Shown here: piece after piece, positions 2,528 through 14,501 of the stretch
How the letters are laid out: each line of letters begins with the position of its first letter
How positions within the stretch are numbered: position 1 is the first letter of the stretch
Source: Roseburia sp. CAG:309
GTDB lineage: Bacteria; Bacillota; Clostridia; Lachnospirales; Lachnospiraceae
Assembly: GCA_000434115.1 (NCBI GenBank)
Contig: FR894025.1
Coordinates: forward strand, 1 to 44,051
DNA length: 44,051 nt
Direction: 5' to 3'
Made by a program: the position numbers and the translations under genes
The notes under the pieces: model-generated
Seen by the model: the letters and a program-made list of their open reading frames with translations, nothing else
What the model was told of the DNA's origin: nothing
Databases searched by the model: none

Positions 2528-3853
2528 ATGACTGAACTCAAGAATGGAAAGAAAATAAAAACGGATATTTTGATTGTGGGAAGCGGGGCAGCAGGATTGT
2601 ATTGTGCGCTGAAACTTCCGAAAGAAAAACAGATTGTCATCATTACAAAAGAAGATGCGGAAAGCAGCGATTCTTTTCTGGCACAGGGCGGTATGTGTGT
2701 GCTGAAATCCGAGGACGATTACGATAGTTATTTTGAAGATACGATGCGCGCCGGTCATTATAAAAACCGAAAAGAATCGGTGGATATTATGATCCGGTCT
2801 TCGCAGAATATTGTGAAGGAACTGATCGGATATGGTGTGGAATTTGAGCAGGAAAATGGAAAACTTCTATATACAAGAGAGGGTGGACATTCGACACATC
2901 GTATTGTTTTTCATGAGGATATCACCGGAAAAGAAATTACAAGCAAATTGCTGGCGGCGGTGAAAAAGTGCGAAAATGTGAAGCTGCTGGAGTATATGAC
3001 GATGATCGATCTGCTCACCGATGGAAAGACGTGTGCGGGGGCAGTTACCATCGATAAAGAGGGTACAAAGCAGGTGATCGTGGCGGAAGATACCGTGCTT
3101 GCCTGTGGGGGCCTGGGCGGACTATATGAACATTCGACCAATTTCCGTCATTTGACGGGAGACGCGCTGGCGATTGCCCTTTCACATAATATCCGATTGG
3201 AAAATATTGATTATATACAGATCCATCCGACGACATTGTATTCGAAAAAGCCGGGAAGACGGTTTTTGATCTCAGAATCCGTGCGCGGAGAGGGAGCGAT
3301 ACTGCTGGATAAAAATGGAAATCGTTTTGTCAATGAACTCTTGCCGAGAGATCTTTTGACGCAGAAAGAATATGAGCAGATGAAGAAAGATGATATGCCG
3401 TATGTTTGTCTGAGTCTGGCACCGATCAAGGAAGACGAGATCAAAGGGCATTTTCCGAATATATACCAAAGATGTCTGGAGGAAGGATACGATGTGACCA
3501 GAGATCCGATTCCGGTTGTGCCGGCACAGCATTATTTTATGGGCGGCATTTGGGTTGATTCTGAAAAAAGCAGGACGTCGGCAGAACATTTATACGCAAT
3601 TGGCGAGACAAGCTGCAATGGTGTTCATGGAGCCAATCGTCTGGCAAGCAATTCTCTTTTGGAAAGTCTTGTGTTCGCGGGACGTGCGGCAAAGAGTATT
3701 GCAGAAAATCCGGGAACGGTCAATGAAACGATGTTAGAGACAATAGACCTAAACCAATATGAAGATCTTGATAAACTTCGTGAAGAATATAAAAAACTCG
3801 TATTGGATGAGATCAAGCGAGTCAAAGAAGCGAGAAAAGGAGAAGAACAATGA
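2528..3853 (+). CDS. nadB: L-aspartate oxidase
   Basis: GSGAAG FAD motif, AQGG, EGGHS, QIHPT, SESVRGEG, HYFMGG, HGANRLASNSLLE; overlaps nadC. Confidence 0.95.
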   Translation: MTELKNGKKIKTDILIVGSGAAGLYCALKLPKEKQIVIITKEDAESSDSFLAQGGMCVLKSEDDYDSYFEDTMRAGHYKNRKESVDIMIRSSQNIVKELIGYGVEFEQENGKLLYTREGGHSTHRIVFHEDITGKEITSKLLAAVKKCENVKLLEYMTMIDLLTDGKTCAGAVTIDKEGTKQVIVAEDTVLACGGLGGLYEHSTNFRHLTGDALAIALSHNIRLENIDYIQIHPTTLYSKKPGRRFLISESVRGEGAILLDKNGNRFVNELLPRDLLTQKEYEQMKKDDMPYVCLSLAPIKEDEIKGHFPNIYQRCLEEGYDVTRDPIPVVPAQHYFMGGIWVDSEKSRTSAEHLYAIGETSCNGVHGANRLASNSLLESLVFAGRAAKSIAENPGTVNETMLETIDLNQYEDLDKLREEYKKLVLDEIKRVKEARKGEEQ

Positions 3854-4704
3854 ATACAATAACGATGCAGTTAAACGCAGATGAACTGATCTTACAGGCG
3901 CTGCGCGAAGATATTACGAGTGAGGATATTACGACCAATGCCGTAATGCCGGAGAAAAAGCTGGGAAGGGTAGAATTGATCTGTAAGCAGGATGGCGTGA
4001 TCGCCGGACTGGATGTATTTGCCCGCGTATTTTCCCTGCTGGATCCGGCGACAGAAATTACCTTTTTCTGTAAAGACGGCGATGAAGTGAAAAATGGTCA
4101 GAAGATGGCTGTGCTGACAGGCGATATTCGTATTTTGCTTTCCGGAGAGCGTGTAGCGCTAAATTATCTGCAGCGCATGAGCGGAATCGCGACTTACACC
4201 AAATCAATCGCAAAACTGTTGGAAGGTACCAAGACAAAGCTTTTGGATACGAGAAAGACGACACCGAATATGCGAGTATTTGAAAAATATGCCGTAAAGG
4301 TCGGAGGTGGATACAATCACCGTTATAACCTTTCCGATGGTGTGCTTTTGAAAGACAATCACATCGGAGCTGCCGGAAGTGTGACGAAAGCGGGTCAGAT
4401 GGCAAAGGAGTACGCGCCATTTGTAAGAAAGATTGAGATCGAAGTTGAGAATCTTGATATGGTAAAAGAGGCTGTAGAGGCCGGTGCCGATATCATTATG
4501 CTTGACAATATGACGCCGGAAGATATGACAAAAGCCATCGAGATCATTGATGGACGTGCAGAGACCGAGTGCTCGGGAAATGTTACGAGAGAAAATGTTG
4601 ACCGCCTTACGAAGATTGGTGTCGATTATATCTCCAGCGGAGCATTGACACATTCTGCGCCGATTTTGGATATTTCATTGAAAAATCTGCATCCGGTAGA
4701 ATGA
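3850..4704 (+). CDS. nadC: Nicotinate-nucleotide pyrophosphorylase (quinolinate phosphoribosyltransferase)
   Basis: DTRKTTP, HRYNLSD, KDNH, EIEVE, MLDN, GALTHS motifs; ATGA overlap with nadB. Confidence 0.96.
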   Translation: MNTITMQLNADELILQALREDITSEDITTNAVMPEKKLGRVELICKQDGVIAGLDVFARVFSLLDPATEITFFCKDGDEVKNGQKMAVLTGDIRILLSGERVALNYLQRMSGIATYTKSIAKLLEGTKTKLLDTRKTTPNMRVFEKYAVKVGGGYNHRYNLSDGVLLKDNHIGAAGSVTKAGQMAKEYAPFVRKIEIEVENLDMVKEAVEAGADIIMLDNMTPEDMTKAIEIIDGRAETECSGNVTRENVDRLTKIGVDYISSGALTHSAPILDISLKNLHPVE

Positions 4705-4792
4705 TTTGAAAGATTGAGGTAACTATTCAGGACGCCTCTCCTCCACATTCGCCTTTCCAACACTTCGTGTTCTTTTCTCGCCTTTGACAAGG

Positions 4793-4830
4793 CTAAAAAT
4801 GCTCCGCGTGATCTCGGAGCATTTTTTTAG
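4793..4830 (+). terminator. Intrinsic terminator after nadC
   Basis: AAAAATGCTCCG-loop-CGGAGCATTTTTTT. Confidence 0.8.
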
Positions 4831-4843
4831 TTTCTTAAACGTG

Positions 4844-4871
4844 AAAAAGAACCGCCGTCACGGTTCTTTTT
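4844..4871 (-). terminator. Bidirectional-type terminator closing the candidate sRNA and/or the DUF2207-like transcript
   Basis: Perfect inverted repeat AAAAAGAACCG-ccgtca-CGGTTCTTTTT. Confidence 0.8.
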
Positions 4872-4962
4872 CTGAAAGAGGAGTTTTATGAAAAAATATC
4901 AAAAATAAGATAACTACCAAAATTAAGTTTTATAAGTTGAAGTTGTTTATCTTTAACTTATG
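4844..4962 (-). ncRNA. Candidate small regulatory RNA with anti-SD/anti-AUG core
   Basis: Minus-strand -10 TATACT (4968-4973), 5' hairpin AUAAGUU/AACUUAU, U-rich core UUUUUUCAUAAAACUCCUCUUUC and a terminator. Inferred from architecture only. Confidence 0.6.
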
Positions 4963-5062
4963 GTCTTAGTATATACTTAAAATGTGAATAAATGATGTTC
5001 AAATTTTCGAAAATTTGTGAACGTTTTGTAAAAACGACTTTCTTAGTTCGTTTATACAATTT

Positions 5063-7012
5063 TTATCGGAAGCCGCCACCGGAAGAATGTCCTCCGGCAC
5101 CCCCGCCACCGCCGGAAAAACTTCGTCCACCGCGTCCACCGCGCCCTTTGGAAGGAGACGACGTCATGACCATGCGGGCAGAGGACATCGTTGTATTAAG
5201 TGAAGAAGCAAAGGCACGTGTGGTGTAAAGGTTGCTTCCATGATACCAGCGTGCCGGTTCGATAGCGATATCTTCAAATTTATCAATCCATTTGTCCGAA
5301 ACTCCCAATACATAAGTGTAAGGAAGAATATCATAAAAATAGGATGGATTTTCGGTTACCAGCATTTCAAGCCGGTCTTTATCGGCAACTTCCAAAAAAT
5401 GTTTAAAGCCACGAATGCGGCCTAACATTTCCGTCCCATACGGGGTACGCTTTGGCACAAGATAGCGGAAAATTGCCATGCCAAAGGAGCAGATAATGGA
5501 AAAGATAAGCATCTGCAGAAAAAACGGTGCGGTGTAAGCTAATTTTACTAACGATGTGATGATGGAACTGAGCCCGAAAAGGATACTCCATACGATTAAA
5601 AATATTTTGTTGCTGATGCCTGGTTTCGAAGGAAGTTGTGTCAACACAAGAAGGGCTGTCAGAGGAAACAAACTTAAAAAGAAGGCAATTGACAGATCGC
5701 CTTCTGCCGCATAAAGGGAACGCACCAGACCGCAAAGCAGAGACAGAACGATCATCAAAGTGATAGGAAGTCTTTTTGACAAAGAAGAAGATTCAAAAAT
5801 AATCTTCTGGTTATCTTTACTGTTCATATCATCTGCGATGTCTCCTAAAACACGGTAAAATTTATTGGTCAGCATACTTTTTGACACAATCGTTCGTCCG
5901 GCAAATAAACCATCAAAAAAACGTTGTTCAATGGAGTTGACACCATCATAATCTTTTTCTTTTTTCAAGATAAAATCGCTCGATTTTATCAATCCTCCAA
6001 GTGTTTCTTCCGTTTTGGCTTCGATGGAAAGATATCCTTTGGAAGCAAGATAGACAATCATGGAAGTAAGGTCCTCGTTTGTGACCTTGCCTTTATAGAG
6101 AAGAGCAATTTCGGCACTGTTGTGGTCATCCGGAGGATAAAATTCTGTGACATCGACCGGCTTGTCATCGTGTCCCCAGATAAACCAGATCAGAAAAGTT
6201 CCAATCAAAAGTATGAAAGGGATGGCGAAGATCAGATAATCATAAAACCGGATCGTGGCAGGAGTTATGGCATCTTTTTTCGCCTGTTCGCAGATGGCAT
6301 CAAAAGACACACCTCGCTCTACTGCTGTAGAAAAAGTGCGGTCCGGAAATTGAATTAAAGCTGTCATATAATGGGACGAAGGGAGAGCGCCTTGTGAATC
6401 CATGCGCACACCGCCGTTTTCAAACATAATCGTGCCATTCGGATAACCAAATGCCCAGATTTTTGCGTTATTTTCATTTAGTTTCAGCATATTTGAGTGA
6501 ATATACACGGAAACGTTGTCCGGATTTTGCTTCATCTGTTCCGGGATAAAACTAAAATAAAGTCCCTGCGCATCTTCGTATTGATTGATAATGTTGGTAA
6601 TATTGTATGTAAGCGTGTAAGTCCGGTTTCCGTATTTGGTGATTCCCCAGCAAAGCTCAAGTGTACCGCCGTTGTTAACGATGCCGCATTTTTCCCGTTT
6701 GTCTACAAAAAAGCCATTCGTATCCCAGTGATCCTGCAGTTCATAATGGTTTCCCAAGTCATCACTGACAGAAAAATCGGTGATTTCGCAGGCACCCAGA
6801 TTTCCATATGGCCGGTAGCCTTCCGTTCCCTGGTAGACAGAAGCCTGCCAGACTTCTTTGATATGAGCGGTTCCGTTTGCATCGATCGAAACATCCATAT
6901 CGATTCGCTCAATGGAATTGCTGTCCTCCGCATAAGCCGCCTCCGGCAAAAAGAGGCAGGAGAGCAAAAGCAGTCCCCATAAGAAAATAGTTGCAAAAAA
7001 TGATTTTTTCAT
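5063..7012 (-). CDS. DUF2207-like membrane protein
   Basis: Signal peptide, extracellular N-domain, several TM segments, GFKHFL and LPYTYVLGV motifs and a Gly-rich C-terminal tail, typical of this family. Confidence 0.8.
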   Translation of the reverse strand: MKKSFFATIFLWGLLLLSCLFLPEAAYAEDSNSIERIDMDVSIDANGTAHIKEVWQASVYQGTEGYRPYGNLGACEITDFSVSDDLGNHYELQDHWDTNGFFVDKREKCGIVNNGGTLELCWGITKYGNRTYTLTYNITNIINQYEDAQGLYFSFIPEQMKQNPDNVSVYIHSNMLKLNENNAKIWAFGYPNGTIMFENGGVRMDSQGALPSSHYMTALIQFPDRTFSTAVERGVSFDAICEQAKKDAITPATIRFYDYLIFAIPFILLIGTFLIWFIWGHDDKPVDVTEFYPPDDHNSAEIALLYKGKVTNEDLTSMIVYLASKGYLSIEAKTEETLGGLIKSSDFILKKEKDYDGVNSIEQRFFDGLFAGRTIVSKSMLTNKFYRVLGDIADDMNSKDNQKIIFESSSLSKRLPITLMIVLSLLCGLVRSLYAAEGDLSIAFFLSLFPLTALLVLTQLPSKPGISNKIFLIVWSILFGLSSIITSLVKLAYTAPFFLQMLIFSIICSFGMAIFRYLVPKRTPYGTEMLGRIRGFKHFLEVADKDRLEMLVTENPSYFYDILPYTYVLGVSDKWIDKFEDIAIEPARWYHGSNLYTTRAFASSLNTTMSSARMVMTSSPSKGRGGRGGRSFSGGGGGAGGHSSGGGFR

Positions 7013-7369
7013 AAAAATCCCCCTTTGTTATGGTAGTGTTAGATTCATTGTATCATAGGTGGCAGGACATTTTCAACCTATTATACAACAAGTGTGTAAA
7101 TAGTAGAAGTGTGATAGTATTGTAAGCTATTGACAAAATCTTGCTTTTTAGTATACGGGTAATAGTGTGATTTTTATGAGCTGTGGGAGGAACTGACATT
7201 TCATTATCAGCAGGAAAAAGAAATTGTTTTCGTTGGTAATGAAGAAATTGATCGCACACCTGCCAAAAAGGAAGTGGAAGAAGTATCCGGTTTTATACCT
7301 CGGAAGTGCATGGGAATATTGTCCATGCAGTTTCGGTATGAGGGAGACTTCGACGAAATGGAAAAGGCA

Positions 7370-11046: not shown

Positions 11047-11487
11047 ATGAGTGGAAAAAATGAAATTATTATGGAATTTTCAAGTAATTCCGAAAATGAA
11101 AGTCTGGCAAGAACGGTAATCAGTGCGTTTGTGGCGCGACTGGATCCGACGCTTGAAGAATTGGCAGATATTAAAACGGCGGTGTCTGAAGCGGTAACCA
11201 ACGCGATCATTCACGGATATGAAAAGAATCCGGGGATGGTGCGTATGGCGGCGAAGATTGAGGACAATGTGGTGTCGGTCGAAATATCGGACACAGGAGC
11301 GGGTATTGAAAATCTGGAAAAGGCAATGGAACCCATGTACACGACAAAACCGGAACTTGACCGGTCGGGGATGGGTTTTGCGTTTATGGAAGCGTTTATG
11401 GATGAGCTTGATGTGCAGTCGGAACTGGGAAAAGGCACGACGATTCATATGAAAAAGACGATTTACAGCGCGATACATATCTCTTAA
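11047..11487 (+). CDS. spoIIAB: Anti-sigma-F factor, serine kinase
   Basis: NESLAR, SEAVTNAIIHGY, RSGMGF motifs. Start moved to ATG 11047 (SD GGAGG). Confidence 0.95.
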   Translation: MSGKNEIIMEFSSNSENESLARTVISAFVARLDPTLEELADIKTAVSEAVTNAIIHGYEKNPGMVRMAAKIEDNVVSVEISDTGAGIENLEKAMEPMYTTKPELDRSGMGFAFMEAFMDELDVQSELGKGTTIHMKKTIYSAIHIS

Positions 11488-12308: not shown

Positions 12309-12382
12309 GTGGGTTTAGCTCAGCTGGATAGAGCGTTTGGCTACGGACCAAAAGGTCGGGGGTTCGAATCCTCTAACCCACG
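12309..12382 (+). tRNA. tRNA-Arg, anticodon ACG, CCA not encoded
   Basis: Acceptor stem GTGGGTT/AACCCAC, D arm GCTC/GAGC, anticodon loop CT-ACG-GA, T loop GGTTCGAATCC. Confidence 0.97.
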
Positions 12383-12420: not shown

Positions 12421-12581
12421 AATTACGTCTGTCTCAGAAAAGAAAGCATTTTCTGCTTGCAGAAAAATGGTTTCTTTTCTAGAGACACAAAACCAATGAG
12501 CATGTAGTGCGATAGCACGGAATGCGAATTGTGTTTGCAAATTGCGGGAGCGTAAGCGGAGCAATTTGTGAGGACGTAATT
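12421..12581. repeat. MITE/REP-like structured element
   Basis: 9-bp terminal inverted repeats AATTACGTC/GACGTAATT enclosing three hairpins. Confidence 0.55.
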
Positions 12582-14448: not shown

Positions 14449-14501
14449 ATGACAAAGTTGTGAACGGTTTGTAAAAAACTGCTTGAAAAACAAATTATGT
14501 A

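Follow-up and report, generated by a model that had tools for sequence, protein, structure and literature searches.

A candidate small RNA gene with an anti-ribosome-binding-site seed and a predicted response-regulator promoter in Roseburia sp. CAG:309 and its relatives

A stretch of 44,051 nucleotides from Roseburia sp. CAG:309 (contig FR894025.1), referred to here in its entirety as the window, carries on its minus strand an element at positions 4844–4961 that is probably a stand-alone gene for a trans-acting small RNA (sRNA) of ~118 nt. The predicted RNA would be transcribed from an OmpR/PhoB-type promoter and would repress translation by pairing with ribosome-binding sites (RBSs). The element is located between nadB-nadC (2528–4704, plus strand) and a gene encoding a DUF2207 membrane protein (7012–5063, minus strand). 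Comparison of related genomes establishes its anatomy as a gene, its strand, and its conservation; from these features we infer the regulator, the targets, the repression, and the expression of the RNA. An unannotated minus-strand sRNA with its own activator-type promoter had been predicted originally from the letters of the window, and this prediction is supported by conservation, covariation, an asymmetry of G-U pairs, and the divergent orientation of upstream genes.

The −10 hexamer, 5′ hairpin, U-rich core, and terminator of the element (Table 1; sRNA coordinates are on the minus strand of the window) were all recovered where they had been predicted, both by reading the sequence and by folding. 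No −35 hexamer occurs 16–18 nt upstream of TATACT (4973–4968). In an alignment of 45 distinct elements in the minus sense (alignment A1), C6 is nearly invariant and A7 invariant around the predicted transcription start. The fold of the element has a z-score of −2.8 against 200 shuffles. The element combines the general features of a base-pairing sRNA with an intrinsic terminator, namely a promoter of its own, a covarying terminator, and a conserved single-stranded seed.

Table 1. Coordinates of the predicted sRNA gene, its promoter, and its neighboring candidate target in the window.
Feature	Position	Strand	Basis or remark
Intrinsic terminator, 12-bp hairpin ending in U run	4844–4871	−	MFE (minimum free energy) and centroid structures concur
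Universal seed UUUUUUCAUAAAACUCCUCUUUCA, final 24 nt of core, anti-AUG-AAA-AAA plus anti-Shine-Dalgarno (SD)	4873–4896	−	Kept in diverged variants
Unpaired U-rich core AUUUUUGAUAUUUUUUCAUAAAACUCCUCUUUCA, 34 nt, ending in CAUAAAACUCCUCUUUCA	4873–4906	−	Centroid fold
Variable linker with semi-conserved UGGCA/UGCCA	4907–4931	−	Alignments A1 and A2
5′ hairpin, arms AUAAGUU (4961–4955) and AACUUAU (4938–4932), loop variable	4932–4961	−	Fold and covariation
Predicted transcription start, A	4961	−	Inferred from spacing, 7 nt past −10, after conserved C
−10 hexamer TATACT	4968–4973	−	Plus-strand AGTATA kept in 19-locus alignment and in position weight matrix (PWM)
Proximal box TTCACA	4983–4988	−	33 nt (three helical turns) from second distal box, 9 nt before −10
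TTTGAACA block between distal and proximal boxes	4996–5003	−	Consensus from 38 distinct sites
Distal box pair TTTACA-N5-TTCACA	5016–5032	−	Such a pair in 40 of 50 distinct promoters
DUF2207 membrane-protein gene, sRNA neighbor and candidate target, outside the sRNA	5063–7012	−	Pfam DUF2207 and DUF2207_C
Predicted pairing site on DUF2207 mRNA (SD, AUG, AAA AAA), ATG 7012–7010	7003–7025	−	Ungapped scan, RNAduplex

A BLAST search with positions 4835–5075 found the element in all 36 other genomes of the same genus. Identity ranges from 100% down to ~70%, with the most distant genomes retaining only a 24-nt exact match, and the flanks of the element drop to 70–80% identity. Among 24 genomes of other families in the order, seven gave short weak matches only (E 1e-4 to 7e-3). 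A wobble-tolerant pattern search found an identical 22-nt core complement (AAAGAGGAGTTTTATGAAAAAA on the plus strand) in 38 of 41 genomes of the genus; one more genome deviates by one letter, G029 has no site for the pattern yet carries a BLAST variant at 92% identity, and G063 has no pattern match and lies outside the BLAST set. Conservation of core and promoter among homologs, which had been proposed as a check on the sRNA, is seen in this core and in a conserved 39-nt promoter consensus. An exact 33-mer is present in contigs of 44 species of the genome collection, all of them gut metagenome-assembled genomes or isolates titled Eubacterium, Roseburia, Lachnoclostridium, Lachnospiraceae, or Clostridium sp. 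A diverged form, present in seven genomes of the genus, is altered everywhere 5′ of UUUUUUCAU (GCAAGAUUG...) and in some cases lacks the 5′ hairpin. These diverged forms retain only UUUUUUCAUAAAACUCCUCUUUCA and the terminator, and therefore the universal seed is the complement of GAAAGAGGAG-UUUU-AUG-AAA-AAA, that is, of an extended SD, a 4-nt spacer, the AUG, and two lysine codons.

The two hairpins are maintained by compensatory substitution. RNAalifold recovers both the 5′ hairpin and the terminator from alignment A1, and over its 44 distinct rows used for pair counts, 99.7% of 785 cells are paired and 13 of the 18 pairs have changed on both sides (172 cells). None of 500 shuffles reached the observed covariation score, and slid controls pair in 29–52% of cells. 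The 5′ hairpin (5 pairs, 99.5% of cells paired) has two double-changed pairs, with 7 G-U and 0 A-C cells; the terminator (13 pairs, 33 distinct sequences) has 11 double-changed pairs, with 33 G-U and 0 A-C cells. Each of the 40 G-U cells in the two helices would be a C-A mismatch on the plus strand, and A-C cells are absent, so the folded molecule is the minus-strand RNA. In keeping with this orientation, the run of T's in the 9 nt past the hairpin averages 4.2 on the minus-sense side versus 1.0 on the other strand.

The promoter follows the consensus aTTTGAACACnnTTTntTCACATTT-N6-TATACT (38 distinct sites). Its 39-nt profile scores 50.7 bits at the sRNA versus 13.1 for the next-best site of the genome, and a scan of the genome with a PWM of the whole promoter gave no second site. 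The distal pair takes the form nT(T/A/C)ACA-N5-TTCACA in 40 of 50 distinct promoters, and the proximal (T/G)(T/A)CACA box follows the second distal box at 33 nt in 35 promoters and at 32 nt in the remaining 5 (n=40). The boxes hold an 11-bp phase, and the promoter is conserved in every arrangement of upstream genes. A signature of OmpR/PhoB-type activators is a set of boxes that share one helical face and substitute for the −35 hexamer, and some response regulator of the OmpR type likely drives the sRNA. A second TTTACA-N5-TTCACA occurs at 14459–14475 (minus strand), where ~22 nt are almost identical to the distal pair of the sRNA and a terminator-like hairpin follows within 20 nt.

In the mechanism we propose, transcription would begin near 4961 at a promoter with a −10 and without a −35, and the four TTCACA-like boxes, all facing one side of the helix, most likely require an OmpR/PhoB-type response regulator. 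In the RNA, a single-stranded stretch would separate a 5′ hairpin from an intrinsic terminator. The seed most likely pairs with several mRNAs at their translation initiation regions, and such pairing would exclude the 30S subunit and lower translation of these mRNAs. Preferred targets would be SD-AUG-AAA-AAA mRNAs, many of them for exported or membrane proteins.

The start of the neighboring DUF2207 gene offers such a site, with pairing just as originally described: 8 pairs (6 Watson-Crick and 2 G-U), one mismatch, and then 14 contiguous Watson-Crick pairs. The site is the third-best non-self match among 4.88 million ungapped genome positions. By RNAduplex, the 24-nt seed has an energy of −21.3 kcal/mol with the DUF2207 start, ranking 7 of 2067 SD-bearing candidate starts (mean −11.7, sd 3.0) and again 7th in a looser set of 2700 starts; one of 200 shuffled seeds attained this value. 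The pairing is above chance and not unique. A special tie between the sRNA and this neighbor, as had been suggested, was not upheld by comparison. Close DUF2207 orthologs (86–98% identity) occur only in the five nearest genomes, beyond which there are paralogs of ~40% identity with unrelated start regions, and the pairing site is within one mismatch in four of the six holders (G000, G019, G023, and G008, not G025 and G031).

Other candidate targets fared no better across genomes. The start of ppk1 (polyphosphate kinase, C135:3677–1584), considered for its phosphate theme and ranking third in its own genome at −23.3 kcal/mol, was rejected as a conserved target: among the orthologs scored, pairing reaches −18 to −23 kcal/mol in just the six closest genomes, whereas 12 others give −8.6 to −13.2; 12 further loci fall outside this comparison for want of a motif anchor. 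A 327-aa gene was found by the wobble-tolerant pattern search in nine genomes (three copies were read); its site needs five G-U pairs, and its likely counterpart in the genome of the window (C112:5881) has a different spacer. The start regions of nadA, nadB, and nadC have no notable pairing with the seed, the energies at the nadA RBS (−4 to −13.7 kcal/mol) being at background level.

Several considerations weigh against an RBS-pairing sRNA. The transcript, its ends, and its strand are deduced from sequence alone, and consensus scans of the window list neither the promoter nor the terminator. A two-hexamer sigma-70 scan gave no promoter at the −10 because there is no −35, and a terminator scan passed over the minus-strand hairpin at 4844–4871, since part of its U run lies within the stem. 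Selection of the 44 loci required the intact 33-mer, so that they are informative for the flanks and not for variation inside it; the unbiased conservation figures are those of the genus BLAST (36 of 36) and the 22-nt pattern (38 of 41). No conserved target was found, as DUF2207 is clade-specific, ppk1 pairing is lost outside the six closest genomes, and the nadA RBS is unpaired; a real comparative search for targets would need whole genomes of many species. Complementarity to RBSs is in part generic, since any anti-SD-AUG-AAA sequence matches many starts. Hydrophobic N-termini are enriched among the best-pairing starts (28 of 85, or 33%, in the top 5% versus 20% of the rest, Fisher p = 0.004; 32% versus 19% for the top 10%, p = 8e-5), which fits the signal-peptide type of target originally envisaged, but this enrichment arises partly by construction from MKK starts and the anti-AUG-AAA-AAA seed, as MKK starts are hydrophobic in 48% of cases versus 19% of other starts. 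Lastly, invariance over 22–34 nt exceeds what a seed usually needs and may reflect a protein partner or another constraint.

This last point leads to an alternative we regard as improbable, in which the minus-strand RNA is real but its invariant 24–34 nt bind a protein or the ribosome, as a sponge or a mimic of the 16S 3′ tail, instead of specific mRNAs. Besides invariance beyond the usual seed length, the want of a conserved mRNA partner speaks for it, and CUCCUCUUUC presumably resembles the anti-SD end of 16S rRNA. Yet the exact register of anti-AUG-AAA-AAA and anti-SD with a natural spacer is what RBS pairing needs, and the constraint of multiple targets could also freeze a seed. The streptococcal CiaR-dependent small RNAs (csRNAs), to which the element is analogous, act by RBS pairing according to PMC3091779.

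The orientation of upstream genes bears on a much less probable alternative, that the element is the 3′ untranslated region (UTR) of DUF2207, reached by read-through and either folding onto its own RBS or processed to a 3′-derived sRNA. Only weak AT-rich hairpins separate the DUF2207 stop (5063) from the core in the window, the core matches the DUF2207 RBS well, and in G032 a second partial copy (seed and terminator) lies just past an 832-aa gene. Across loci, though, 28 of 44 have a divergent open reading frame (ORF) as their nearest upstream ORF of at least 100 aa; in 16 this ORF is co-directional, and one locus has none (mechanical ORF calls). Its identity also varies by locus and includes DUF2207, a chemotaxis receptor (MCP), a RelA_SpoT-domain protein, MarR, AAA, and MerR (53 of the 85 flanking ORFs were scanned, one per group of near-identical loci). 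Because the upstream gene is divergent in most loci, the sRNA needs its own promoter, the one conserved in all of these arrangements, and a 3′ UTR origin is not general. The scarcity of DUF2207 orthologs and the incomplete retention of their pairing site count against it as well. The self-folding 3′ UTR suggested originally may still apply, as read-through, in the six closest genomes.

Also highly improbable is a functional unit on the plus strand, where a perfect GAAAGAGGAG-N4-ATG precedes a mini-ORF (MKKYQK) that might act as a leader peptide, a micropeptide, or a ribosome decoy. The first six codons (ATG AAA AAA TAT CAA AAA) are identical in most genomes, but the stop shifts, being TAA or TAG after six codons or occurring only after 14–15 codons, and diverged variants read MKKQSC..., so that conservation goes no further than MKK(YQK). 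There are no synonymous changes, indicating selection on the nucleic acid. The plus strand has no gene downstream in the window and runs antisense into DUF2207, and the hairpins, with 40 G-U and 0 A-C cells, fold in the minus-strand RNA only. A coding role is unlikely given the lack of synonymous change, conserved length, and downstream gene, and the folding of the hairpins on the other strand.

Genes of NAD (nicotinamide adenine dinucleotide) biosynthesis lie on the terminator side in 13 of the 23 downstream flanks scanned: nadA co-directional in six, nadC convergent in three, and a niaR-type gene (HTH_11 and 3H domains) convergent in four. That the element is a riboswitch-like leader or attenuator of this operon, as the six co-directional nadA genes (beginning 58–304 nt downstream) might suggest, is the least credible of the alternatives, because the NAD gene is convergent in the other 7 of 13 loci, including that of the window, the seed pairs with the nadA RBS only at background level, and a conserved TGTCTTGTCA box with a −10 lies between the sRNA terminator and nadA in loci with nadA downstream, which gives nadA its own controlled promoter and means that the element is not its leader. 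The TGTCTTGTCA box resembles the NiaR type I site quoted in PMC2330245, where the core of this operator is given as TGT-N4-ACA; no such core occurs on either strand of 4960–5040, the region of the sRNA promoter. Inversion of the whole nad operon beside the sRNA would keep the two adjacent.

In L022–L029 and L052–L057, a conserved CTGTCTTGTCAGnTGTAAA box with TATGAT or TATAGT lies directly upstream of nadA; it is similar to the NiaR type I operator that PMC2330245 quotes for Fusobacterium. A repeat-like insert of 150–300 nt occupies the spacer between the sRNA terminator and nadA in L022, L054, L055, and L056. A MarR-family gene adjoins the sRNA in six of the scanned loci (L015, L021, L031, L044, L064, and L068), four times upstream and divergent and twice downstream; this adjacency could reflect synteny or a second regulator.

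The predicted trans-acting sRNA was likened originally to streptococcal csRNAs, and the likeness extends to layout and not to kinship. As described in PMC3091779, csRNAs are ~100 nt long and have two stem-loops flanking a stretch complementary to SD and AUG, and their −10 is preceded at 10 nt by a response-regulator direct repeat (NTTAAG-N5-TTTAAG) in place of a −35, with a C just before the start; more than one copy may occur in a genome. The element is of similar length and has the same two stem-loops around an unpaired anti-SD and CAU stretch, the same substitution of repeats for a −35, and the same C, and G155 has two copies. Unlike csRNAs, it has four TTCACA-type boxes spread over ~50 bp and ending 9 nt from the −10, its seed is far longer and nearly invariant, and its hosts are Lachnospiraceae-type gut Firmicutes with one copy per genome in the genus. 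The csRNA family of Rfam (RF02379) scores 20.3 bits against a gathering threshold of 57 (E = 2.7; 4844–4938, minus strand). At gathering thresholds, Rfam gives nothing in the sRNA region and, elsewhere in the window, only a tRNA and a Clostridiales-1 RNA; at E ≤10, the csRNA alignment is full-length but insignificant, and nothing better appears on the minus strand. The CiaR repeat NTTAAG-N5-TTTAAG is absent, the promoter having TTCACA instead, and a lone TTTAAG in the spacer (4981–4976) is unconserved in other species. The element probably represents a new sRNA family, though its kind is known: a response-regulator-type promoter, a seed predicted to occlude the RBS, and an intrinsic terminator. 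It is an analog of csRNAs and not a homolog.

A second comparison is with RsaE/RoxS of Bacillales, a C-rich anti-SD sRNA under the control of ResD/SrrA and Rex. Like RsaE/RoxS, the element is a Firmicute sRNA predicted to pair with SD regions under an OmpR-type regulator; its TTCACAA half-site has what we take to be a resemblance to the ResD site, and CCUCCCCC stretches occur in its G155 relatives, in one case within a hairpin loop. Unlike RsaE/RoxS, it has a seed composed of CUCCUC and anti-AUG instead of CCCC motifs, and RsaE/RoxS is not among the 17 Rfam matches at E ≤10 in positions 4700–5100 of the window.

PHO boxes offer a third comparison, as their 11-nt direct-repeat units stand in place of the −35 (PMC4415409), and the boxes of the sRNA promoter lie in 11-bp phase. 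The genome has eight TTYACA-N5-TTYACA sites versus a shuffled mean of 2.7, and three sites of the three-box pattern TTYACA-N5-TTYACA-N14..30-TTYACA, which was shaped after matches had been seen, versus none in 20 block-shuffled genomes. These three are the sRNA promoter, a gene for a Na/Pi symporter-PhoU fusion (C110:42982), and an operon of an OmpR-type regulator and kinase (C168:19189) whose best NCBIfam matches are PhoB and PnpS/PhoR, respectively, both under curated cut-offs. The same three matches recur in each of the five closest genomes, and the 9-nt spacing between proximal box and −10 is found at the PhoB-like operon as well. The PhoP consensus of B. subtilis is TT(A/T/C)ACA. Control of the sRNA by a Pho-type regulator is, on this evidence, a possible lead and not proof, and we consider it rather doubtful. 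The boxes of the phosphate genes read TTTACAT, whereas the second distal and the proximal box of the sRNA keep CACA genus-wide, with C and not T at the third place; the TTTACA boxes upstream of pstS are out of N5 phase; and in G155 the three-box pattern finds two sRNA loci and no phosphate gene.

The two phosphate-related sites (C110:42982–43035, L152; C168:19189–19242, L151) share the layout TTTACAT-N4-TTTACAT-N15-TTTACA-(4 or 9 nt)-TATA(C/G)T, which is likely the PHO box of the genus. The five closest genomes keep it, and G012 has an almost identical site before its symporter gene. A PstS-like ORF (C96:2859–3863, L153) matches Pfam PBP_like_2 in two pieces of swapped order (130–266 before 3–126), with one TAA inside one of the matches; permutation or rearrangement of the gene could explain this, as could an assembly artifact. 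The box pattern also caught a tandem array of at least five copies of a 22-nt unit (TTCACACGTTTTTTTACACGCT-like) in G155 (C31:141900 onward, L243).

Beyond the genus, a covariance model of seed and terminator (R1) scores 93–96 bits in the two genus genomes sampled; among 149 other genera of the family, 12 have matches, at 32–41 bits. In the genome of the window, R1 gives a proven false positive at 33 bits, the RBS of a real small gene behind an upstream terminator. Ten R1 loci were read: three proved to be real gene starts (66, 288, and 394 aa), and the other seven have antisense ORFs of 5–26 aa. Outside the genus, only the match in G155 (41.4 bits) was accepted as convincing. There, an unpaired CUUUUUUCAUAAAUACUCCCCCUCG precedes a strong terminator (z = −6.5), the antisense mini-ORF has seven codons, and the promoter reads TTCACA-N5-TTAACA-N16-TACACA-N9-TATAAT. 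This promoter recurs once in G155, before a second RNA-like unit that starts with CAUAAGUUAA as in the window and contains UUUUUUCAUAAAUA, a hairpin loop with CCUCCCCC, and a terminal hairpin with a U run. Both loci share the three-box promoter, the UUUUUUCAUAAAUA stretch, and C-rich anti-SD stretches. The sRNA family thus probably extends to other genera, with one or two copies per genome.

On a broader and still more speculative reading, several Lachnospiraceae genera would each have one or two copies of an sRNA that reached the csRNA design independently. Driven by a phosphate-sensing (PhoB/PhoR-like) or related envelope or redox two-component system, the sRNA would throttle translation of exported and membrane proteins with MKK starts in abundant gut commensals. 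If true, it would be the first anti-RBS riboregulator of Firmicutes with a link to Pho, and its design would have converged in evolution with that of csRNAs. To our knowledge, almost nothing is known of riboregulation in the Lachnospiraceae-type Firmicutes that dominate the human and mouse gut. The sRNA family is absent from Rfam 15; one aimed search of the literature for Lachnospiraceae sRNAs with Shine-Dalgarno and Rho-independent terminator gave no match, and a search on Pho-regulon sRNAs gave, judged by titles, no paper on Firmicutes sRNAs. As a family, the sRNA would be well defined and recognizable from its sequence, having a clear seed and a promoter of its own that looks dependent on a response regulator. 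With a single gene, a single motif, and a cultured isolate that has the exact core, there is an experimental handle on a two-component regulon, on a post-transcriptional circuit, and on whether the csRNA design evolved twice.

In G032, the partial second copy (C15 ~11120–11260; L073:1119–1260) comprises the seed from UUCAUAAAACUCCUCUUUCA and a covarying terminator, follows the 832-aa gene on the minus strand, and looks like a 3′-UTR-borne relative. The same genome has a Cof-type HAD gene divergent from its main sRNA, and the RBS of this gene matches 20 nt of the seed.

The window also contains one copy (4716–4806, plus strand) of a dispersed repeat of ~130 nt, which was first seen as 17 short matches and occurs at 13 other places of the genome, making 14 copies with CTTTGACAAGGCTAAAAATGC. 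The repeat has internal hairpins and a long-range inverted repeat, and a full copy scores 27.8 bits against the Rfam Clostridiales-1 RNA (threshold 48, E = 2.7e-4). The copy in the window lies between the nadC stop and a plus-strand terminator (4795–4826) and differs at its 3′ end. Farther along, a tRNA gene (12309–12382, plus strand) is followed by a full-length Clostridiales-1 RNA (12423–12579, plus strand) with a score of 102.7 bits.

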